DNA of 15,515 bases from Candidatus Pacearchaeota archaeon. Its GTDB lineage: Archaea > Nanobdellota > Nanobdellia > Pacearchaeales > GW2011-AR1. The notes below the pieces were generated by a model. The model did not search any database, was not told the origin of the DNA, and saw only the letters and a program-made list of their open reading frames with translations. The stretch covers positions 1 to 15,515 of the forward strand of contig JAUYJY010000059.1 in the NCBI GenBank assembly GCA_030699205.1, in the 5' to 3' direction. The stretch's first letter is position 1; every line of letters starts with the position of its first letter. Of this stretch, positions 1,597 through 15,347 are shown piece by piece. The translations under genes were made by a program, and so were the position numbers.

Positions 1597-3039
1597 TCAC
1601 CCCAGAACTTTCCTAACTATTTCCATTGCTCTCTTCGCATCTAACTTTCCTTTAAATTCTTTCATAACCAAACCCATATAAGCATTAGCCCTCAATCCCG
1701 GTTTTCCCTTAACCATCGCCCTTATTCTTTCTTCAATCTCATTTTCACCTGCTTTCTCAATCCTTAAAGCATCATCTAATTCTAACCCATCAAGAATTTT
1801 TTCCATAATTATTTTCACATCTGATTTATCTAACTTCCCTGAATTAACCTTCTCTAATATTCTTTCCAAAACTTTCTCGGATAAAACATCCCTAACATCA
1901 TCCATGCTCTTCCTCATCTTAGTTCCAAATTCAGTCCTCCAAAGAGTAATCATTTTCCCAACTAAATTAGCATCTTTGTTATATACCTTAATTAAAGCAA
2001 GAAATTCATCAACCACTTCGCCATTAGACAAAACTAATTTAATCATTTCATCAGACAGCCCCTTCTTCTTTAACAATCCAGTAAGTTCAGTCCTCAATTT
2101 AGGAAGGTGTTTTTTCAGCTTATTTACTCTCTCTCTCGAAATTTTTAATAAATCTAAATCAGTTTCAGGATACATCCTCGCCTGTCCGGGCATTGGCCTC
2201 AAATACTCCGTCTCTCCAGAAGGCAAAGCATTCCTAACCTCTCCAATTTTATTTCCCTTCTTAATATTTTCCAGTTGTCTTTCAATCTCCAAATCAATTG
2301 TTTTAACAAACATCTTAGGCTCCTGAAAACCTTTTATTTCAACCCTGTCATGTCCTTCAATAGAAACATTCACATCCTGCCTTATTGTCCCAATCCCTCT
2401 TTTAACCTTGCAAGCCCTTAAAATCTCTCCAAGTTTTAAAGCAACCTCTTTCACTTCTTCGGGATTTCTCATATCGGGTGCAGTAGCAATTTCAACTAAA
2501 GGAATCCCTAACCTATCCAATCTATAAACAACCTTATCTTTTTCTCTTAAAATAACCCTCGCAGAATCCTCTTCAAGACAAACACTATCAACCCCCACCT
2601 TCCCAAAAGAAGTTTCCACAAAACCCGAATGAGCAATCAAAACAGTTCTTTGAAATCCGGAAGTATTTGAGCCATCAATAACCGTCTTCCTCATAACCTG
2701 TGTTGTATAATATATCTCACAATTCAAAAGCAAAGCAACCTGTAAAGCGATATCTAAAGCATCTTCGTTTATAGGTCTTGGAGGCTCTTCATCCAACTCA
2801 ACAAGAGAAACAGAATCGCAATACCCTTCGTAGCAAAACTCTTTTCCCAAAACAGCTTCATGCATAACCGCAACATCAACCTCCCCAGTCTCACCAGCAA
2901 CAGCATGCATTCTCCGCCTAATAACATAATCCGGCTCATCGTTCCTCAAAAAAGAAGGTGCATTAGAAAACAACTTCCCAGTATCAATCTGCTGATGTAT
3001 CTCAAGCCCGGCTTTAAAACCAATTTTTTTATAATCCAT
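1597..3039 (-). CDS. gatE: Glu-tRNA(Gln) amidotransferase subunit E (GatE), compact 480-aa form
   Basis: GatB/E family blocks are present: GLEIHQQIDTGKLFS (GatE-type HQQ), LVELDEEPP, DGSNTSGFQRT, IRQDVNVSI and RMYPETD. There is a YqeY-like tail, AYMGLVMKEFKGKLDAKRAMEIV. The partner gatD is in the same window. Confidence 0.85.
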   Translation of the reverse strand: MDYKKIGFKAGLEIHQQIDTGKLFSNAPSFLRNDEPDYVIRRRMHAVAGETGEVDVAVMHEAVLGKEFCYEGYCDSVSLVELDEEPPRPINEDALDIALQVALLLNCEIYYTTQVMRKTVIDGSNTSGFQRTVLIAHSGFVETSFGKVGVDSVCLEEDSARVILREKDKVVYRLDRLGIPLVEIATAPDMRNPEEVKEVALKLGEILRACKVKRGIGTIRQDVNVSIEGHDRVEIKGFQEPKMFVKTIDLEIERQLENIKKGNKIGEVRNALPSGETEYLRPMPGQARMYPETDLDLLKISRERVNKLKKHLPKLRTELTGLLKKKGLSDEMIKLVLSNGEVVDEFLALIKVYNKDANLVGKMITLWRTEFGTKMRKSMDDVRDVLSEKVLERILEKVNSGKLDKSDVKIIMEKILDGLELDDALRIEKAGENEIEERIRAMVKGKPGLRANAYMGLVMKEFKGKLDAKRAMEIVRKVLG

Positions 3040-3060: not shown

Positions 3061-3070
3061 TTATTAAAAG
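3061..3070 (-). promoter_or_regulatory. TATA box (CTTTTAATAA on minus strand) for gatE, centred ~26 nt upstream of the ATG
   Basis: The same A/T motif at the same spacing is seen upstream of proS, the 9428-9997 gene and the tRNA. It abuts the stop of the upstream ligase gene. Confidence 0.45.
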
Positions 3071-3940
3071 TTATCTTCCAAAAAACTTTCTAATCTTGTC
3101 CATTTCTTCAGAAGCTGAAAGAGTTTTATAAGATTCAATAACCTTCTCTCTTGTATAATTGAACCCTCTTTCTTTCCTAATGTCCCTTCTAACTTCATCC
3201 ACTAAGCCTGTAAGAGTAACTGAAGACTTCCCCCTATCAAGTAAACGATGAAAAGCCTTCATAAACCTAAAACTCGTCAAATAATCTACATTTAAACCTC
3301 CAAAAACCCCTTCCCGTTTCTCAGCAAAATCAGGATGCAAAATCTTCCAAAACTCTTGAGGATCTGAATGATAATCTTTTATTACTAACCCTTCTCTCGG
3401 TCCGCTATAATATCCACTTCTCTCTTTGTTCAACATCAAATCAAAATCTTTAAAACTCAATCTTCCAAACTTTAAAACATCTAAAAAATTAACTCCCTCA
3501 ACACCCAAACTGATAATTTCCTTCCTGGCTTCTTCATAAGGAATAAATTTTCTGCTATCTCTATCAAACACATCAATTACAAAAAACTTATCGATAAACT
3601 CTGGATTATATTCAATTGAGTGATTTCCAAGCCATTCTCCAAAGACTATACGGTTTCCAGGTAGAGCATATAATGAATGATTTGAATGAGCCCAATCAAC
3701 AAATCTTCCAAACCAAGGAACTCTCTCAATAGTTTTCTTTCCTTTCAAAAATTTAGCCCTTGTTCCAAGTCTAATTTGAAAATTTGAAACACTGACTTGG
3801 CAATTCCCACCATCTACCTTTTCAAAAACTCCTACCTTCCGATTTTTCAGTACTTTGACAACTTCAGAAATCGAATCCAATGGAACAATCCCTCCATATT
3901 TCACAAAACTTTCATTATTATCATTTTTTGAACTTGCCAT
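3071..3940 (-). CDS. ATP-dependent RNA ligase, Rnl2-like / RNA_ligase superfamily (289 aa)
   Basis: Complete covalent nucleotidyltransferase motif set: I EK41VDGGN (codon K41 = 3818-3820), III VFGEWLG, IIIa FFVIDVFD, IV EGLVIKD, V WKILHPDF. KxDGxN rather than KxDGxR favours RNA ligase over DNA ligase. Confidence 0.8.
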   Translation of the reverse strand: MASSKNDNNESFVKYGGIVPLDSISEVVKVLKNRKVGVFEKVDGGNCQVSVSNFQIRLGTRAKFLKGKKTIERVPWFGRFVDWAHSNHSLYALPGNRIVFGEWLGNHSIEYNPEFIDKFFVIDVFDRDSRKFIPYEEARKEIISLGVEGVNFLDVLKFGRLSFKDFDLMLNKERSGYYSGPREGLVIKDYHSDPQEFWKILHPDFAEKREGVFGGLNVDYLTSFRFMKAFHRLLDRGKSSVTLTGLVDEVRRDIRKERGFNYTREKVIESYKTLSASEEMDKIRKFFGR

Positions 3941-3964
3941 TTTGTTATCTAGTAGACACCCAGT

Positions 3965-4606
3965 CTATTCCAGTATAATGGGAACCATCTGGACCCCTAT
4001 CTTTAAAAGATCAATGGTGGCCTGAACATGTTCATCAGCACTCAATACAACAACATGATTTAGATTTTCTATCGGAAGTCCACTAACAACTACAAATTTC
4101 TTTGGACTTGGAACTAATAAATATCTTGAAGATAATGCAGAAGTAACAAGCTTCAGATCACAATATGATATTTCATCTCTTTCACATTTCTTATGCCCTT
4201 TCTCAAATGCAACTCTTCCTGCAAGATGAACATTCAATCCTAGTAATTCAATATCAACATCAGGATCAAAAATGGTTTTGCTTAAAAGAGATTTATAAGC
4301 CTTATTCATTCTTTTGACAAAATCAAAAGTTCTCTCAGAAATTTCACGCCTACCGTGAACCCTATGATTTTCATAATGCCCCTTAGTTTCTTTGAAAATT
4401 TCATTAGAAACAAACAAAGGATAATTCTGATTAACTAAACTCCTATAAAAATCAGGAGAGCTACATGGAGAGTTCTCTAGTTCTGTTTCAATATCTATTA
4501 TTGCAGAAGTATCTAAAAAAATGGAAGGTCTTCCATCAGAAATTGCATTTATCTGCTTCGTTATTCGTTTAACTAATCCTTCCAAGCCATTCTCTTTCTT
4601 CTTCAT
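3965..4606 (-). CDS. PIN-domain nuclease (213 aa, enlarged PIN with insertions)
   Basis: The acidic quartet sits in canonical contexts: IFLD32TSAIID, FVSNE69IFKE, SYCD150LKLVTSAL, VVLSAD191EHV. It ends 24 nt upstream of the ligase gene on the same strand. Confidence 0.7.
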   Translation of the reverse strand: MKKKENGLEGLVKRITKQINAISDGRPSIFLDTSAIIDIETELENSPCSSPDFYRSLVNQNYPLFVSNEIFKETKGHYENHRVHGRREISERTFDFVKRMNKAYKSLLSKTIFDPDVDIELLGLNVHLAGRVAFEKGHKKCERDEISYCDLKLVTSALSSRYLLVPSPKKFVVVSGLPIENLNHVVVLSADEHVQATIDLLKIGVQMVPIILE

Positions 4607-4627: not shown

Positions 4628-4637
4628 CTTTTAAACC
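4628..4637 (-). promoter_or_regulatory. TATA-like box (GGTTTAAAAG on minus strand) ~27 nt upstream of the PIN ATG
   Basis: A/T box at the spacing used by other genes in the window. Divergent intergenic region shared with the DUF1003 gene. Confidence 0.35.
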
Positions 4638-4645
4638 TTTCTGCT

Positions 4646-4668
4646 ATGTAACCCCCAAGAAGTTACAT
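4646..4668. promoter_or_regulatory. Inverted repeat ATGTAAC-N9-GTTACAT in the PIN / DUF1003 divergent intergenic region (possible operator)
   Basis: 7-bp perfect arms (4646-4652 and 4662-4668) lie between the two divergent TATA-like boxes. No binding protein can be assigned. Confidence 0.25.
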
Positions 4669-4717: not shown

Positions 4718-5137
4718 ATGAATAAAAAAGAAAAATTTCAGGAAATAAAAGAATCCGTAAACAACAAACTTAATCACCCAAATATTTCAGCAAAACGAAC
4801 ATTTGGAGAAAAAGCATCCGACAACCTAACAAAATGGGCGGGCTCGTGGATATTCATTATAATCTTCTTAGTAATAATTGCATTATGGATTTATATCAAT
4901 GTATCTTTCATATTAAACTACGGAAAAGAACCTTTTGACCCTTTCCCATTCATTCTTCTTAACCTCGCACTCTCTCTATTAGCTGCAATACAAGCCCCGA
5001 TAATTCTTATGTCCCAAAACAGAGAAGCCAAAAAAGACAGATTAAGAACAGAATATGACTACGCAGTAAATAGAAAAGCGGAAAGAGAAATTTCAGAGAT
5101 TAAAAGTCAATTAAACAGAATTGAAAAAAGAATATAA
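4718..5137 (+). CDS. DUF1003-family membrane protein
   Basis: 139 aa. The block GEKASDNLTKWAGSWIFIIIF ... FDPFPFILLNLALSLLAAIQAPIILMSQNREAKKDRLRTEYDYAVNRKAEREI matches the conserved DUF1003 core (FDPYPFILLNL...MSQNRQ...D..RAE.DY.VN.KAE). Confidence 0.8.
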   Translation: MNKKEKFQEIKESVNNKLNHPNISAKRTFGEKASDNLTKWAGSWIFIIIFLVIIALWIYINVSFILNYGKEPFDPFPFILLNLALSLLAAIQAPIILMSQNREAKKDRLRTEYDYAVNRKAEREISEIKSQLNRIEKRI

Positions 5138-5479: not shown

Positions 5480-6193
5480 ATGGAATTAGAACCTATATTA
5501 AATGACTTTGAATGTTATAGGCAAGTTCAAAGAATTAAAGGTTTAGATAATCTTCTAACAGATTATTTAATAACACATGAACTTGCTGTATCAGATGGAG
5601 AACCAAATCAGGGAAGAGAAGTGAGACTAATGAGGGATAAACCTGATTTATCTAGTCGTTCTGTAATATTTCATGAAAAGTGTGAGATTGGTTTATATCT
5701 TGGATTATTTGCAACCAATCTGGGTTTTAAATATACTGAGGATGAAGTTAGGAATGGAACAGCACATAAACAGAATTATATTGAAGCACATAATGTTGCT
5801 GAATCAATAGAACTTGCATTATTACAACATGTTGCAATGAAAGTAAGTGGAAGAAAAATTCCATTTTTTGCAATACTTCCTACTAGGCCTGTGATACAAA
5901 TTTTTGATCCTGAATTTAAAGTTGCAAAATTAAGAATGGGTAGATATCTTCCAAATAACTCATTTTTTAGATTGTATGCAGGAACAGAAGAGTTTGTGCC
6001 ACTTAAATTTAATCCAGAAGATGTTCAAGCAAGTTTTGAAATGTTTGAAAGATTTGGCTCTGAATATCATACTCCTGATTTTAAAGATAGATGTCTAACA
6101 GCAGTTAAAAATTTTGTAAGAAGCACTAATATTAAATATGAATCATTGCAAGAGTCTATGCGTGTTAGAGTAAAACAAGCCCCAACCTTTTAG
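5480..6193 (+). CDS. Orphan hypothetical protein (237 aa) with an RNxxxH motif
   Basis: Long ORF with host-like composition and its own TATA box. I recognise no family. R91-N-G-T-A-H96 (5750-5767) fits the HEPN Rx4-6H pattern, but that is weak evidence on its own. Confidence 0.6.
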   Translation: MELEPILNDFECYRQVQRIKGLDNLLTDYLITHELAVSDGEPNQGREVRLMRDKPDLSSRSVIFHEKCEIGLYLGLFATNLGFKYTEDEVRNGTAHKQNYIEAHNVAESIELALLQHVAMKVSGRKIPFFAILPTRPVIQIFDPEFKVAKLRMGRYLPNNSFFRLYAGTEEFVPLKFNPEDVQASFEMFERFGSEYHTPDFKDRCLTAVKNFVRSTNIKYESLQESMRVRVKQAPTF

Positions 6194-6300: not shown

Positions 6301-6623
6301 TCCAATGAATATGTATAGAAGATTTCATCTTCGCCATAATGAATTTCTTTTAAAGTTCCAATTTCTTTAAAGCCAAAACTTTTATGCATTTTTTGAGAAG
6401 CAACATTTTTTTTATGTGTTGAACTTAAGGCGATTCTATTTTTACTTTTTTGTTGTTGAGAAATTTCAATATATTTAGATAATAAAGTCTTTTCTTTATG
6501 AGTTACATTGTGAATAATAATGCCCGATAAAACAGCGTCATATCCCTGACCTAAATCTTCTTTGGTAAAATCTCCACGAATTAGTTTTATACACAGCTTA
6601 TAAATATTTATTCGCTCAACAAT
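6297..6623 (-). pseudogene. Start-less C-terminal fragment of a GNAT-like acetyltransferase (108 codons open, no ATG/GTG/TTG before codon ~73)
   Basis: Hand translation of the minus strand gives IVERINIYKLCIKLIRGDFTKEDLGQGYDAVLSGIIIHNVTHKEKTLLSKYIEISQQQKSKNRIALSSTHKKNVASQKMHKSFGFKEIGTLKEIHYGEDEIFYTYSLD*. The tail N-x2-[AS]-x3-[YH]-x2-x-GF-x-x-x-G is GNAT motif-B-like. The open frame begins right after a TGA at 6624-6626 and overlaps the gatD 3' end. Confidence 0.45.
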
Positions 6624-7873
6624 TCATTAAACTCTCCGGAAAAATTCCCAAGCATTTTTTCCCTAACTTTCTCCCTGCTTCTCCAGTTTTTATGTCCTAA
6701 AACAAAACCAAGTTTAACAAAAGCGGTTTCAGACAACATATCCCCTAAAAAAATAACTCCTGCTTTTTCCAATTCTCTTCCGGTAGAATAAACCTTTGGA
6801 TTTAACCTTCCATAAATTGTCTGAGAAACTGCAAAAACAAACAATCCAGATTTAACAAGTTTCTTTATCTTTGCAATCCAGCCAATATTAACATGCCCAA
6901 GCCCAGACATTTCAATGATAATTCCCTTATATTTCTCTTTTAAATAATAATCTAAAATTCCTTCATCCTGTCCGGGGTAGAATTTTACCAACGCAATTTT
7001 ATCATTAAAACTGCAATCCAATTCAGTTTTACCGTTATTTCTTGGCTTATATTCTCTCAAAAATTCAATCTTGTCCCTGAAAACTTTTGCAATCTCCCTC
7101 GTATTAACTGCCTTAAAAGTATCTCTTCTTGAAGTGTGCATCTTCCTCACTTTATTTCCTTGCAACGCATAACAAAAATCATCATTTGTAGAAGCATGCC
7201 CAACGATAACAACTTCTGCACAATCACCCAACGCAAAAGAAACTGCACAATCAAGATTCATCTCCGCATCCGAACTCGCCCTGTCAATGCTCCTTTGCGA
7301 AAATGTCAAAACAACAGGTTTATTCAAATCTTTCAAAAAAAATGACAAAATAGAAGAAGTATAATGCAAAAAATCAGAACCATGCGTAATAATTACCCCT
7401 TCAATATCTTTGTCATTCAACATTTTTTTAGTGATTTCGGCAATTTTAATCCAATGTTTCCAGTTCATATTTTCAGAAAGTTCCATAAATGGAATCTCCA
7501 TTTTAACATTAACTTTCTCAAACAACTTGGGATAAAACTTCGCAAACTCATCAACACCAGCCAATGCAGTTACTCCCCCTGTTTTTGCATCAAGCTTAGA
7601 GGCAATTGTCCCCCCGGTAACAATCAACCCTATAGTTTTTTTATGGTCATCAAAAGAAGTTTTAATCTCATTTTTTACATCCTCTTTAAATTTCTTCAAA
7701 ACCTTAAAATCTAAAATATTTTCCCTTGCGATTCCAATATTATATCCGGATTTTAATTTAATTAAAATAATCTCCTTGTCATAACTCTCAAGAATCCTCC
7801 CCTCAATTTCCTTCTTAGCCAATCTCAACAAAACATAATCCCCTGCACTAAAATTTAATTTTGATTCAGTCAT
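6608..7873 (-). CDS. gatD: Glu-tRNA(Gln) amidotransferase subunit D (GatD)
   Basis: 421 aa. An N-terminal small beta domain is followed by an asparaginase-like core with IGLIVTGGTIASKLD and VIITHGSDFLHYTS. GAGGAG lies ~9 nt upstream of the ATG. Confidence 0.9.
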   Translation of the reverse strand: MTESKLNFSAGDYVLLRLAKKEIEGRILESYDKEIILIKLKSGYNIGIARENILDFKVLKKFKEDVKNEIKTSFDDHKKTIGLIVTGGTIASKLDAKTGGVTALAGVDEFAKFYPKLFEKVNVKMEIPFMELSENMNWKHWIKIAEITKKMLNDKDIEGVIITHGSDFLHYTSSILSFFLKDLNKPVVLTFSQRSIDRASSDAEMNLDCAVSFALGDCAEVVIVGHASTNDDFCYALQGNKVRKMHTSRRDTFKAVNTREIAKVFRDKIEFLREYKPRNNGKTELDCSFNDKIALVKFYPGQDEGILDYYLKEKYKGIIIEMSGLGHVNIGWIAKIKKLVKSGLFVFAVSQTIYGRLNPKVYSTGRELEKAGVIFLGDMLSETAFVKLGFVLGHKNWRSREKVREKMLGNFSGEFNELLSE

Positions 7874-7930: not shown

Positions 7931-9391
7931 TTAATAAGCTTTCGCTATATAAACAACTTCCTTTGCATTTTTACCGCAAAAAACACACTTCCCGGAAACA
8001 TTTTCCTTTTCAAGTAAAGTCCCTCTAACTTCTGCACCAATTTCTTTCTCAACTTTCACCGCACATTTTTCTCCGTCTCCATCAACAGAACAAAAACCAC
8101 ACCTCGCAATCCCTCCTTCAGATAAAACCCATTTGACTTTTGCAATAGTGTCTGCATCCCTTATCCTTCCCTTAAACAATTTATCTGCCTCCCTCTTTAA
8201 ATTTTCCCCAGATTCAACAGAAACTTTCCTTAAATAATTCATTAAATCTTTCTCCAAGATAACTTCCTTCTTATTCAAATCTCTCCTGAAAACACTTAAC
8301 TTTTTATCTTTTACTTCCTTTTTCCCTAAATCAATCCTTACGGGAATTCCTTTCATCTCCCAATAATTAAATTTCTCCCCTGGAGATTTTCTATCATCTA
8401 AATCAATCACAACTTCATCAGTAAATACGGAAATTTTCTTTTTCAATTCTTCAGCTTTTTTAACTAATTCTGAATCATTTGAAATCGGAACGATAACAAT
8501 ATGTTTGGGTGCTATTTCCCAAGGAAATCTTAACCCCTTATCATCTCCATGAACTATCACTACACTTGCAAAAATCCTTGAAATTGCAGGACCATAACAA
8601 GTCATAAATGCATATTTTTCTTTTTCATCCTTATCTTTAAATTTAACATCAAATGCTTTTGAAAAATCTGGAGAAATCATATGCGTAGAAGGCTGTTGTA
8701 TAACTTTCCCGTCAGGATTCAAAACATCTGCTGCAAATGTCCTTGATGCCCCGGGAAATTTATCCCACGACGGCCTTTCAAACATCATAAAAGGAAGACA
8801 AAAAATACCATGCAAAACTTCTTCACTTGTTTTCATATCTTCTTTAACCTGATTCAAAGCATCTTCCTCGTTTGCAAAAGCACAATGGGTTTCAATCCAA
8901 TGAAATTCCCTGCTTCTTAAAAAAGGCCTCGTCGCCTTGGTATCATACCTAAATACCTGTGCTCTTTGATAAGACTTAAAAGGCAAATCCTTATAACTTC
9001 TAAGCCACAATGAAAACATTTGATAAAAAGCAGTCTCGCTTGTCGGTCTTAAAGCCAATTTCTCTGGCAATTTCTTATCCCCTCCATGAGTAACCCAAAA
9101 AACTTCAGGAGTAAATCCTTTCACGTGTCCGGCTTCCTTCTCAAAATTTTCTTCAGGAATTAATGTTGGAAAAAAATGTGGCTCATGTCCTTTCTTCTGC
9201 AAACTCTTTTCAAAAAAAGAATACATCTTTTCCATAGAATAAACACTCCAAGGCCTAAACACCAAAAATCCCTTCAAATTATATCTTATATCTGCAAGCT
9301 CTGCCTTCTGCACAACTTCTGTAAACCACTCTGAAAAATTTTCGTTCTTCCTTGCAACTATTCCTTTGTTATCTCTTTCATCTCCAACCAT
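7931..9391 (-). CDS. proS: Prolyl-tRNA synthetase, archaeal/eukaryal type
   Basis: 486 aa. Contains FSEWFTEVVQKAELADIRY, LALRPTSETAFYQMF, FRYDTKATRPFLRSREFHWIETHCAF, and a Cys-rich C-terminal domain ending in the characteristic terminal Tyr (IAKAY). Confidence 0.9.
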   Translation of the reverse strand: MVGDERDNKGIVARKNENFSEWFTEVVQKAELADIRYNLKGFLVFRPWSVYSMEKMYSFFEKSLQKKGHEPHFFPTLIPEENFEKEAGHVKGFTPEVFWVTHGGDKKLPEKLALRPTSETAFYQMFSLWLRSYKDLPFKSYQRAQVFRYDTKATRPFLRSREFHWIETHCAFANEEDALNQVKEDMKTSEEVLHGIFCLPFMMFERPSWDKFPGASRTFAADVLNPDGKVIQQPSTHMISPDFSKAFDVKFKDKDEKEKYAFMTCYGPAISRIFASVVIVHGDDKGLRFPWEIAPKHIVIVPISNDSELVKKAEELKKKISVFTDEVVIDLDDRKSPGEKFNYWEMKGIPVRIDLGKKEVKDKKLSVFRRDLNKKEVILEKDLMNYLRKVSVESGENLKREADKLFKGRIRDADTIAKVKWVLSEGGIARCGFCSVDGDGEKCAVKVEKEIGAEVRGTLLEKENVSGKCVFCGKNAKEVVYIAKAY

Positions 9392-10087: not shown

Positions 10088-10160
10088 GGGCCTATAGTTT
10101 AATGGATTAGAATAAGGGACTTCGGATCCCTAGATCGAGGTTCGATTCCTCGTAGGCCCA
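10088..10160 (+). tRNA. tRNA-Arg (anticodon UCG), 73 nt, no encoded CCA, no intron
   Basis: Cloverleaf folded by hand:
- Acceptor stem GGGCCTA/TAGGCCC.
- D stem GTTT/GAAT (2 G-U pairs), with GG in the D loop.
- Anticodon stem AGGGA/TCCCT with loop CT-TCG-GA.
- 4-nt variable loop.
- T arm CGAGG-TTCGATT-CCTCG.
- Discriminator A. Confidence 0.85.
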
Positions 10161-10229: not shown

Positions 10230-10253
10230 TTCGATTCCTCGTAGGCCCGTTAG
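10230..10253 (+). repeat. Direct duplicate of the tRNA-Arg 3' end (att-like)
   Basis: TTCGATTCCTCGTAGGCCCgTTAG at 10230-10253 versus TTCGATTCCTCGTAGGCCCaTTAG at 10141-10164. The match is an exact 19-mer and 23/24 overall. The uppS stop codon lies within the repeat. Confidence 0.75.
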
Positions 10254-11296
10254 TTCCCCCCAAAATTTCTCCTTCGGTTAGAAAAATCCTGCACGGCATT
10301 TCTTAATTCCTCTGCATTAAAATCTGGAAAATGCACGTCGGTAAAATAAAACTCACTATATGCACTCTGGAAACTCATAAAACCACTCATTCTTTTTTCT
10401 CCGGAAGTCCTTATTATTAAATCTGGATCTGGAATTCCAGAACTATCAAGATAATTAACAAAATCATCTTCTTTTATTTCCTGCACTCCCGCCCTAATTG
10501 CCTTATTCAATGCCCTCACAATCTCATCTCTTCCGCCGTAATCCAAACAGATTTGAACATTTAATTTATCAAACTTCTCCGTGCTTTTTTCTAAATCATC
10601 AATTGCCTTCACTAATTTTTCAGGTAATCTGTCCTTCCTTCCAAAATGCCTAAACCTAATTTCTTTCTTGACTGACTCTTCTTTAAAATCTTTTATAACA
10701 TCTAAAAATAATCTAAACAAATTATCAATTTCCTTCTTACTCCTATTCCAATTCTCTGTAGAAAAAGTCCAAAAAGTCAAATAATTAATTCCTAAATTCT
10801 TTGCCTCTTCCAACAAACTTTTAAAATTTTCTCCGGTAGCAGCAATCCTATGACCCCTAATTCCCTCCATTCCTCTTGCTCTCGCCCACCTCCTATTTCC
10901 GTCAGGAATAATTGCTACATGTTTTGGTATTTTTCCTTTTATCCCCAAAATCTTTCTTCCCAAATTTAAAAAACTTGATTTCTGATCCTCAATAAGACCT
11001 TTATCCAGAGCAATTATAAAATTCTCATAATCTCTTTCCTTCTTTTTCCAAAAATATGAAACGCCTTCAACACTGCTTAACTGACTCCCTGCAGAAATAA
11101 CTTTTAAAAAATCTTCCAAAACTTCCCTTCTCCCCTGACAAATTATTAAAACACTACCTTCATCTTTATTTATTACAAAACCCTTAACTCCAAGTTTATC
11201 CGCATTTTCTTTAACAAAATTTCGGAACATAACTCCCTGCACTCTTCCAAAAACTTCTATCTTTAATTCAGAGATAGTTTCTAATTTCGATTCCAT
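10250..11296 (-). CDS. uppS: Acylphosphatase-like domain fused to undecaprenyl-diphosphate synthase-type cis-prenyltransferase
   Basis: The N-terminal ~95 aa carry acylphosphatase signatures VFGRVQGVMFR and GFVINKDEGSVLIICQG. The C-terminal ~250 aa carry HVAIIPDGNRRWA and DLIIRTSGEKRMSGFMSFQSAYSEFYF. Confidence 0.85.
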   Translation of the reverse strand: MESKLETISELKIEVFGRVQGVMFRNFVKENADKLGVKGFVINKDEGSVLIICQGRREVLEDFLKVISAGSQLSSVEGVSYFWKKKERDYENFIIALDKGLIEDQKSSFLNLGRKILGIKGKIPKHVAIIPDGNRRWARARGMEGIRGHRIAATGENFKSLLEEAKNLGINYLTFWTFSTENWNRSKKEIDNLFRLFLDVIKDFKEESVKKEIRFRHFGRKDRLPEKLVKAIDDLEKSTEKFDKLNVQICLDYGGRDEIVRALNKAIRAGVQEIKEDDFVNYLDSSGIPDPDLIIRTSGEKRMSGFMSFQSAYSEFYFTDVHFPDFNAEELRNAVQDFSNRRRNFGGN

Positions 11297-14153: not shown

Positions 14154-14375
14154 ATGGTAGTTAAAACATTTAATGTTGATTTAGCAGTTTACAAGAAGTT
14201 CTTGCAATTTTGCAGAGATAATGGGATTAGTATGAGCAAGCAAATTGAAATTTTTATGAAATCAAGAGTAGATGAAAAGAAAGAAGTTAGAGAAGAATAT
14301 TTGCAAAAGTTAGAGGAAATAAGAAGAGGAAAGTTTATTAGAGTTGGTGATTTTTCTAAGAGATATGGACTATGA
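14154..14375 (+). CDS. Ribbon-helix-helix (CopG/RelB-like) antitoxin
   Basis: 73 aa. An N-terminal beta strand (KTFNVDL) is followed by two helices (AVYKKFLQFCRDNGISMSKQIEIFMKS) and a charged C-terminal tail. It overlaps the toxin gene by 11 nt. Confidence 0.7.
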   Translation: MVVKTFNVDLAVYKKFLQFCRDNGISMSKQIEIFMKSRVDEKKEVREEYLQKLEEIRRGKFIRVGDFSKRYGL

Positions 14376-14634
14376 ATTAGAAATACCTGAAAATTTGGAT
14401 AGGATTTTTCATAAATTATCTAAAAAAGATAAAAAGTCATTAGAAATAATAAACAATAAAATAAACGGCATTCTGGAAAATCCCTATCAATTTAAACCCC
14501 TGAGAAATAAAATGGCTGGAATAAGGAGAGTCCATGTCGGAAAAAGTTTTGTTCTTACTTACGAAATTTTAGAAGCCGAGAAGATTGTTAGACTTTTAGA
14601 TTACGACCATCATGATAAGATATTTAAAAAATAA
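14365..14634 (+). CDS. RelE/ParE-superfamily type II toxin (89 aa from ATG 14365; the track start at 14344 is a TTG)
   Basis: MDYELEIPENLDRIFHKLSKKDKKSLEIINNKINGILENPYQFKPLRNKMAGIRRVHVGKSFVLTYEILEAEKIVRLLDYDHHDKIF. This follows the RelE/ParE pattern (...P...KPL......RR.RVG.Y...Y.I......V.......H...IY) and the gene order is classic antitoxin-toxin. Confidence 0.75.
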   Translation: MDYELEIPENLDRIFHKLSKKDKKSLEIINNKINGILENPYQFKPLRNKMAGIRRVHVGKSFVLTYEILEAEKIVRLLDYDHHDKIFKK

Positions 14635-14707
14635 ACTTCTTTGGTTTCTTTAACTTCAAGTTAAACGCCCCCACGATTAATAAACATCAGATTTAAAGTA
14701 AACTTCT
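14630..14707 (+). repeat. Composite motif cluster between relE-like stop and the convergent GC-rich ORF
   Basis: Elements, in order:
- AATAAACTTCT at 14630-14640.
- 17-nt perfect palindrome TTTAACTTCAAGTTAAA at 14649-14665.
- AACGCCCC at 14664-14671.
- AATAAACATC at 14679-14688.
- TAAACTTCT again at 14699-14707.
The AACGCCCC + AATAAAC(T/A)TC arrangement also occurs on the minus strand at 6298-6276. Confidence 0.5.
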
Positions 14708-15347
14708 ATAAACCTTCGGTCTGCAATATTCCCTTCATCTCGAGCACACCCGCTCCGCGGGAAACGACTACTACCCGACCGTCCTCGTCCGAGTTAGCGA
14801 TATCCTCGTCGTACGAGCCGACCCTGAGACTCCTGTTCAGACACAACCCCGAAAGGTTTCTATCAGAAGTATGCCATGTGCGACTTCCTTTCTCCCTATC
14901 CAAATTAAGAGGAAATCCTTTTTCATCTGCCTTATCGAAGTTATATCCATTCCATTTAGGGCTAAGTCTATCATCTGCCTGAGCTTGGAAAGCTACAGTA
15001 GGAACGACACGCAAGCCATATCCTTTTTCATCTTCCATCCATGGATCCACTTTAAGTCCTGTAACTAATACTGGCGTCCTCAAATCGCCAACACGGTCTG
15101 CAAGTTCTCCAAAAATAGGAAGACTTCTTTCATAACCTCTGCCCGCTCCACGATAACCTCTGCCCGTTCCAAGTAAAACAAATGCAGGAGTATCAGTATA
15201 ATGACTATATTTAACTTGCCTAAAAACACGCGGGTCGCTTAAGTCTATAAGTTGTGCAACGCCAGCAGAAGGTGCAAGCATTTCATCAACTAACATTGAA
15301 AGAAAAGGTGTAGAACCTCTGAATTTTCCTCGATTAGATTCTATCAA
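14706..15347 (-). CDS. Orphan hypothetical protein (213 aa), compositionally foreign, with GxGRGY tandem duplication
   Basis: Long ORF in a region much more GC-rich than the rest (39 G/C in 14741-14800). It uses CGN Arg codons. The start is uncertain: TTG at 15347, and the first ATG is codon 18. No family recognised. Confidence 0.6.
   Translation of the reverse strand: MIESNRGKFRGSTPFLSMLVDEMLAPSAGVAQLIDLSDPRVFRQVKYSHYTDTPAFVLLGTGRGYRGAGRGYERSLPIFGELADRVGDLRTPVLVTGLKVDPWMEDEKGYGLRVVPTVAFQAQADDRLSPKWNGYNFDKADEKGFPLNLDREKGSRTWHTSDRNLSGLCLNRSLRVGSYDEDIANSDEDGRVVVVSRGAGVLEMKGILQTEGL

Follow-up and report, generated by a model that had tools for sequence, protein, structure and literature searches.

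The window analyzed here is the whole of a 15.5-kb contig (15,515 nt, GC ~33%) from a metagenome-assembled genome (MAG) of Candidatus Pacearchaeota, a DPANN archaeon. Its minus strand carries two adjacent genes, one for a 213-aa PIN-like protein that we call X (positions 3965..4606) and one for a 289-aa ATP-dependent RNA ligase of PF09414 (3071..3940), separated by a 24-nt spacer without a promoter element (3941..3964, minus strand). Directly downstream of the ligase on the same strand lies gatE (1597..3039), which encodes subunit E of the Glu-tRNA(Gln) amidotransferase and is a core flank outside the cassette. A first-pass annotation of this DNA had proposed that X and the ligase form an RNA cut-and-reseal module, and its open reading frame (ORF) coordinates, shared minus strand and 24-nt gap were all confirmed in the sequence. 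The divergent upstream neighbor it described is the gene for a DUF1003 membrane protein (4718..5137, plus strand), which is often kept as the left flank at related loci, and its claim that no small antitoxin-type ORF is present also stands, as no ORF of at least 20 aa fits between X and the DUF1003 gene. We found that X and the ligase are an obligate pair and that this pair is an accessory, swappable cassette in a strain-variable slot beside gatE.

Loci for comparison were taken from contigs of ligase homologs, from Genome Taxonomy Database (GTDB) species genomes scanned with the ligase profile, and from two divergent X proteins, and the 25 non-redundant loci comprise 21 ligase-anchored and 4 GatE-anchored X-ligase loci. 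Each of the 25 has X immediately before the ligase (21/21 ligase-anchored and 4/4 GatE-anchored), so the neighborhood survey proposed in the first-pass annotation shows conserved co-occurrence of the two genes. The gaps between them range from -38 to +24 nt (18 loci), with a 4-nt ATGA-type overlap in 6 loci and a Shine-Dalgarno (SD)-like GGAGG before the ligase in several, and the pair looks bicistronic. Pairwise identities of X correlate with those of the ligase (Spearman 0.75), whose mean identity is 44% across 23 divergent sequences. Hence, from the adjacency, the overlaps and short gaps, the SD-like GGAGG and the identity correlation, the pairing is obligate, and X and the ligase are probably translationally coupled.

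Several loci vary around the two-gene form. In L011 (1-844), one of the 21 ligase-anchored loci, the ligase is intact but X is reduced to its C-terminal half (profile positions 117-217), through either decay of the cassette or a break in the assembly. In L014 (4192-4566), the palindrome-bearing promoter described below is followed first by a 104-aa ORF and only then by the X-ligase pair, an arrangement that points to a cassette of three genes. L028 has a 102-aa ORF, and of the small ORFs that precede X elsewhere, those of L001 (114 aa) and L005 (94 aa) have no detectable similarity to each other.

Nearly all ligase-anchored loci have gatE after the ligase and gatD (and ProRS) upstream, which gives the impression of a housekeeping context; this impression is biased since presence of the ligase was how all these loci were selected. 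To control for this, we probed metagenomes with the window GatE and obtained 80 GatE-anchored loci (42-67% identity), 53 of which are informative in having at least 900 nt of upstream flank. We found the (X-)ligase before gatE in 4/53 of the informative loci and gatD directly adjoining gatE in 2/53, and the remaining loci have other genes or nothing at the X-ligase position. The ligase is thus not a universal housekeeping gene; had it been one, this would have counted against the first-pass annotation.

The alternative cargoes, which include AbiEii-like or MNT-like nucleotidyltransferases (NTases), are Fic/DOC proteins in 9 loci (PF02661 at 4e-14; PADLOC SoFic at 5e-20), AbiEii-like NTases in 7 loci (AbiEii model of PADLOC at 7e-4), DUF6036/DUF2204 NTases in 5 loci, a HATPase_c_2 protein, and several families without annotation. 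Loci with X-ligase are dispersed over the GatE tree, interspersed with loci of other cargo. Two metagenome contigs of near-identical strains have swapped cargo: L048 (1-924, X-ligase) and L050 (1-933, Fic) are 99.4% identical over 2.4 kb (gatE and downstream) and unrelated upstream, and the shared sequence begins precisely with the gatE TATA box, right after the cargo stop codon. Judged by the tree and by this pair of contigs, cargo swapping is both recent and repeated. X-ligase shares its slot with toxin/defense-type genes, and such behavior is typical of conflict, defense or toxin-type genes.

These results bear on whether X and the ligase are part of a vertically inherited housekeeping operon tied to the Glu-tRNA(Gln) amidotransferase (gatD ... 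X-ligase-gatE). The flanks of the ligase-anchored loci fit such an operon, and the divergence of X and the ligase correlates with that of gatD and gatE, but gatE has a conserved TATA box of its own. The operon is ruled out by the 4/53 frequency among GatE-anchored loci, by the unrelated or absent cargo in the others, by the occurrence of X-ligase away from gatE in L012 and L025, and by the L048/L050 swap, and we regard it as extremely improbable. Interchangeability with Fic/AbiEii-type genes speaks for a role in conflict or growth control and against a housekeeping one.

The L025 contig (1-12236, binned as Methanosarcinales) has X-ligase beside archaeal S10 and EF-1alpha genes and also carries sigma-54 activator and CheR-like genes, and it may be mis-binned or chimeric.

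We found that the cassette has its own promoter. A BRE/TATA-like element (B recognition element and TATA box, AGAAAGG TTTAAAA; 4628..4643, minus strand) lies ~22-24 nt before the X start codon, and immediately upstream of this promoter is the palindrome GTAAC-N9-GTTAC (4648..4666), a candidate operator or cassette-associated site that is the sole match in the window (0.16 expected). In 11 loci, the palindrome precedes X at a constant distance, with the general form GTAACT-N7-GGTTACA, and the BRE/TATA element (GAAAGG TTTAAAA) with its preceding palindrome is upstream of X in nearly all loci, sequence and spacing kept. The same combination precedes every cargo type (Fic, AbiEii-like, NTase and unannotated), for example at 2137-2171 in L039, 5071-5106 in L071 and 4629-4662 in L083 (slot loci L030-L109), and empty slots lack it. 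The start codon follows ~24 nt after the TATA box, so a leaderless mRNA is expected, and by this spacing the X-ligase mRNA is probably leaderless. Since a few further promoters in the fetched loci carry the palindrome and BRE/TATA element too, the combination may be the signature of a small regulon or simply a general type of promoter. An operator specific to X-ligase was considered and rejected, as the palindrome is common to all cargo types.

The right-hand boundary of the cassette is the TATA-like box of gatE, TTTTAATAA (TTTAATAA; 3061..3069, minus strand), which abuts the stop codon of the ligase or other cargo and is conserved at approximately -33 to -25 of gatE in 14 loci. Both TATA-like boxes had been predicted in the first-pass annotation, and because their positions are conserved across loci, they are more than AT-rich chance matches. 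Together, the slot content, the boundaries and the separate promoter support its description of the pair as a self-contained inserted unit.

The slot resembles defense islands and hotspots, and SoFic and AbiE cassettes, in lying between core genes, in holding cargoes that match SoFic and AbiEii, and in varying at the strain level. It differs in its DPANN host, in carrying a single cassette per slot, in that no integrase or recombinase was seen near it, and in the one palindrome and BRE/TATA promoter that stands ~24 nt before every cargo type. We found no published account of this slot or of the X-ligase pair of DPANN archaea in a literature search. Hence, the cargo slot beside gatE, with its palindrome and BRE/TATA element, is apparently a site of cassette exchange in DPANN archaea that has not been described before.

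The ligase matches PF09414 at 62.5 bits (cutoff 27) and consists of an NTase domain (~residues 36-200) and a C-terminal helical domain of ~90 aa. The complete RNA-ligase motif set read in the first-pass annotation was corroborated by conservation: motif I (EK41xDGGN) is invariant in 23/23 distinct relatives, and GE102W, F119xxD123, E183-G184-x-V-x-K188 and K199 are kept in 22-23/23, with K41, E102, E183/G184 and K199 invariant in all 23 and K188 present in 22/23. The motifs are also (nearly) invariant in an alignment of 9 homologs. When the AlphaFold2 (AF2) model of the ligase (predicted local distance difference test, pLDDT, 85.6) was searched with Foldseek, Rnl3, Rnl5 and Rnl2 ligases were matched alike at E ~1e-8 (best ~5e-9; T4 Rnl2 4.5e-8), and the top matches include the Rnl3 enzymes 8ucg, 2vug and 5d1o over ~295 columns. 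Profile scores place the ligase equally distant from NgrRnl (Rnl5, 27.0 bits, with an alignment of ~203 columns that spans the NTase domain only) and Pab1020 (Rnl3, 26.6 bits), and its domain order, NTase and then C-terminal helical domain, resembles that of Rnl2, whose C-terminal domain is needed for nick sealing; an N-terminal OB-like domain is the hallmark of Rnl5. It scores 21.6 bits against the Rnl3 equivalog TIGR01209, whose cutoff is 136.9, and a scan with the ligase consensus gave no match to PF18330, the Rnl3 C-terminal domain. The PUA-like N-terminal domain of Rnl3, a homodimeric enzyme, is absent, since the NTase domain of the ligase starts at ~residue 36 and aligns to Pab1020 from residue 90. 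On profiles and model, we regard the ligase as belonging to a clade of ATP-dependent RNA ligases that is as yet unclassified, with no Rnl family clearly preferred.

X itself has no Pfam or NCBIfam match at E<=0.1. A word-indexed homolog search with X returned the query alone, and with the family profile it returned 4 proteins, whereas an exhaustive HMMER search with X found 64 representative clusters of 200-255 aa; a sequence search of the PDB with the X profile gave nothing relevant. The consensus of the X family matches Pfam PIN_12 (formerly DUF4935) at E 1.6e-5 and 25.9 bits, under the gathering score of 32; the match begins at the first strand (FLDT), and 7/60 family members have sub-threshold PIN_12 matches of their own. 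The AF2 model of X (pLDDT 94.3; predicted template modeling score, pTM, 0.90) has the alpha/beta/alpha fold of PIN domains, with a central parallel sheet, and a long helical hairpin (~residues 91-132) inserted in the PIN core; PIN_12 is likewise described with a long helical insertion that follows strand 2 (PMC5499597). Foldseek of this model against the PDB put PIN folds of VapC, FitB, SMG6, Utp23 and HARP on top with probability 0.97-1.0, a target-normalized template modeling (TM) score of up to 0.65, and a best E of only 8e-3. Hence, the PIN assignment of the first-pass annotation is supported indirectly, by the fold and by the sub-threshold consensus match to PIN_12, and not by a Pfam match of X itself.

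The acidic quartet proposed in the first-pass annotation was right for D32, D150 and D191, but the conserved glutamate is E73 and not E69: E73 is present in 21/21 X proteins from the loci and invariant in the alignment of 60 family sequences, and E69 is present in 7/21. D32 is the other invariant residue of this alignment, and conservation is 90% or higher at I37, H77, E88, K140, D144, S147, D150, D191 and H193. All 21 X proteins from the loci have D32, E73, H77, E88, S147, D150, D191 and H193. The candidate active site of X is composed of D32, E73, D150 and D191, together with the conserved H77, E88, K140, S147 and H193. By alignment and predicted fold, X belongs to a new, uncurated family of PIN-like nucleases and has an intact acidic quartet of the kind that binds metal in PIN domains.

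X and the ligase could also be a classical type II toxin-antitoxin (TA) system, in which the ligase would neutralize X by binding alone and its ligase chemistry would be irrelevant. The tight two-gene operon, the translational coupling and the patchy distribution are in keeping with this, and X is similar to the toxins of VapBC systems in that the VapC/FitB toxins 3h87, 6a7v and 2bsq are among its best structural matches and in keeping the four PIN acidic residues, as well as in being accessory and patchy. Compared with VapC, X is ~70 residues longer and has the helical insertion, and in place of a small DNA-binding antitoxin its partner is a 289-aa enzyme encoded downstream; indeed, neither X nor the ligase has a DNA-binding antitoxin-type domain. 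The palindrome is not an autoregulatory site of X-ligase since it is common to unrelated cargoes. Furthermore, the catalytic residues are invariant in 23 divergent ligases at the mean identity given above, and therefore there is selection on catalysis. We consider neutralization by binding alone very improbable.

Separately, the window carries a classical-looking TA pair at 14154-14634 (plus strand), where a 73-aa ORF overlaps a 96-aa ParE/RelE-type toxin (PF05016, E 1.2e-5) by 32 nt, and its architecture contrasts usefully with that of X-ligase.

A published counterpart of X-ligase is the pairing of HARP (PIN_5, a minimal protein-only RNase P that cleaves the 5' leaders of pre-tRNAs) with Rnl3 (the Pab1020 family), described by Seshadri & Gopalan 2025 (PMC12153264) and also in PMC5499597. 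In both cases, a ~200-aa PIN-like metallonuclease with a helical insertion has a genomic link to an ATP-dependent RNA ligase, the pair is distributed patchily in the manner of accessory genes, and a TA reading has been raised. X-ligase could be a DPANN analog, possibly a remote homolog, of HARP-Rnl3 that serves RNA maturation without being toxic, an accessory pair with no part in conflict; X would trim a stable-RNA precursor (pre-tRNA leader, C/D-box sRNA or similar) to a 5'-phosphate and the ligase would circularize or join the product. The HARP structures 7e8k, 7e8j and 7f3e are among the best fold matches of X and align over its full length, the two-helix hairpin in its PIN core may be a counterpart of the HARP spike-helix domain (PMC8266387), through which HARP forms dimers and dodecamers, and Rnl3 enzymes are among the top fold matches of the ligase. 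The co-occurrence of HARP and Rnl3, their patchy distribution and a circularization hypothesis are published (PMC12153264), and the flanks of X-ligase are tRNA-related (gatD, gatE and ProRS).

The families themselves are another matter. Neither HARP model is matched by the X family: X scores E 0.18 against PF08745 over a partial region only, none of 60 X-family members matches TIGR03875 at E<=1, and the nearest Pfam family is PIN_12; similarly, the ligase falls short of TIGR01209 and has neither the Rnl3 N-terminal domain nor a PF18330 match. VapC toxins score at least as high as HARPs against the X model in Foldseek. HARP-Rnl3 pairs are mostly divergently oriented, whereas X and the ligase are always in tandem and often overlap, and HARP is reported absent from DPANN (PMC6380272), the host group of X-ligase. 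A maturation enzyme would also not be expected to be interchangeable with Fic/AbiEii-like genes between near-identical strains, and the swappable slot shared with such genes sets X-ligase apart from HARP-Rnl3. Such a maturation role is the main rival to the interpretation favored below; it is, in our view, unlikely, but it deserves serious consideration, and the same holds for the trimming and circularizing steps it would involve.

The surveys of HARP-Rnl3 relied on PF08745, PF18330 and TIGR01209 and listed no DPANN taxa. Censuses based on hidden Markov models (HMMs) found no HARP in DPANN and therefore missed the X-ligase analog.

An Rfam scan of the window found one tRNA and nothing else. 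This tRNA-Arg(TCG) gene (10088-10160, plus strand) and those of L023 (6108-6180) and L017 (7911-7982) have a TATA-like box ~25-33 nt before the mature 5' end and do not encode CCA. Their 5' leaders may be very short or absent, and three tRNAs are too few to judge the need for RNase P. An apparent intron-containing tRNA lies at ~6618-6751 of L022, with its 5' half upstream of the ARAGORN call, which was reported as a 92-nt 'tRNA-Asp'.

T4 Pnkp/Rnl1 is a known case of RNA repair by a ligase. The ends left by most ribotoxins are 2',3'-cyclic phosphate and 5'-OH, and these call for a kinase and a phosphatase before they can be joined. As an RNA repair (immunity) cassette against viral, host or competitor ribotoxins, X would trim damaged tRNA or rRNA ends to 3'-OH and 5'-phosphate and the ligase would seal them. 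The intact catalytic residues of both enzymes and the location in a variable, conflict-type slot agree with such a role, and ligase-based RNA repair has been tied to immunity in Pnkp1-Rnl-Hen1 (PMC4411300). X-ligase is like that system and like T4 Pnkp/Rnl1 acting against PrrC in that an RNA ligase restores, or would restore, RNA cleaved in conflict, but there the two enzymes come from opposing sides or end-healing enzymes are needed, whereas here nuclease and ligase are co-encoded with no kinase, phosphatase or methyltransferase. The cassette thus lacks the two activities that most ribotoxin ends would require, none of the loci has a Hen1-like or Pnkp-like partner, and endonucleolytic trimming shortens the RNA, so it would not be restored. 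Hence, we regard repair of foreign damage as improbable.

PIN metallonucleases leave 3'-OH and 5'-phosphate ends, which are directly joinable by ATP-dependent RNA ligases. The interpretation we favor is a two-gene accessory cassette for cutting and then resealing RNA in a conflict or growth-control role, and we hold it tentatively, at a little short of an even chance; the slot context is the reason for favoring such a role. X and the ligase would be expressed from one bicistronic and probably leaderless mRNA, X would act as a PIN-like metal-dependent RNase and the ligase as an ATP-dependent RNA ligase. X would nick cellular or invader RNA, of the tRNA or rRNA class, and leave 3'-OH and 5'-phosphate ends, and the ligase would rejoin these same ends, which would make the cut reversible or self-limited. 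A conflict system in which an RNA ligase neutralizes nucleases has been proposed before, as cited in PMC5499597.

A bolder form of this cut-then-reseal interpretation is an enzymatic-antidote module. The PIN-like RNase would nick tRNA or rRNA to stop translation and the ligase would reverse the damage, so that DPANN archaea would have an on/off switch for virus defense or dormancy, carried as one of several interchangeable cargoes with operator-controlled leaderless promoters. HARP-Rnl3 would then likewise be a conflict system and not a back-up for RNase P. We rate this fuller scheme as unlikely, though still worth pursuing.

Several results weigh against a conflict role. None of the defense models of PADLOC-DB 2.0 matches X or the ligase at E<=0.1, and the toxin- or defense-like nature of the other cargoes is taken only from their family names. 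No relatives were found on plasmids, and phages and viral contigs gave distant generic ligases only and no X. The divergence of X and of the ligase scales with that of gatD and gatE (Spearman 0.56-0.60, compared with 0.57 for gatD and gatE themselves), and therefore the cassette is an old resident of these lineages and not a product of recent long-range transfer; this suggests long residence with repeated loss or replacement. Along with this scaling, the lack of a PADLOC match and of plasmid or viral relatives beyond generic ligases speaks against a mobile defense element. The TA reading of HARP-Rnl3 has been judged unlikely, at least in Thermococcus kodakarensis, because a ligase knockout of T. 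kodakarensis shows no growth defect (PMC12153264). Toxicity of X and an antidote action of the ligase, as the first-pass annotation proposed, are plausible inferences.

The first-pass annotation had also held that no two-gene PIN and RNA ligase system of this kind was known to have been characterized experimentally. Pairings of a PIN-like nuclease with an RNA ligase are in fact already published, for HARP-Rnl3 and for PIN_3, so the pairing as such is not new. None of them has been shown to work as a system. The PIN_3 operons, cited in PMC5499597, resemble X-ligase in that a PIN nuclease shares its operon with an RNA ligase, which has been proposed to reverse the damage done by the nuclease. 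Their ligase has the ATP-grasp fold, in contrast to the covalent nucleotidyltransferase of PF09414 here, and the operons are bacterial, belong to another PIN family, have extra components (ATPase, HNH) and were proposed from comparative genomics.

Comparative genomics is so far the sole source of evidence for such pairs, both for HARP-Rnl3 and for PIN_3 with its ATP-grasp ligase. The DPANN pair, formed by two uncurated families, adds context evidence that the earlier cases lack: it is a single cargo interchangeable with Fic/AbiEii-type genes. Because X and the ligase are two small proteins, the cut-and-reseal idea becomes directly testable. The slot could also reveal further archaeal conflict genes, since several of its cargoes have no known family.

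Beyond the DUF1003 gene of the window lie a 237-aa ORF without a family (5480..6193, plus strand), gatD (6608..7873) and ProRS (7931..9391). The 237-aa ORF, which is between the DUF1003 gene and gatD, has no Pfam, NCBIfam or PADLOC match and no homolog in the other fetched loci, and it may be another lineage-specific insertion. The window GatE is short, 480 aa compared with model lengths of ~620-630, and two separate stretches of it match GatE equivalogs, as though an internal insertion domain were missing; GatE is ~475-495 aa in all related loci. Toward the contig end (14500-15515), GC rises to 0.41 over a 213-aa ORF without a family match (14706-15347, minus strand). At 10250-11296 (minus strand), a 348-aa protein is an acylphosphatase domain fused to undecaprenyl-diphosphate synthase.

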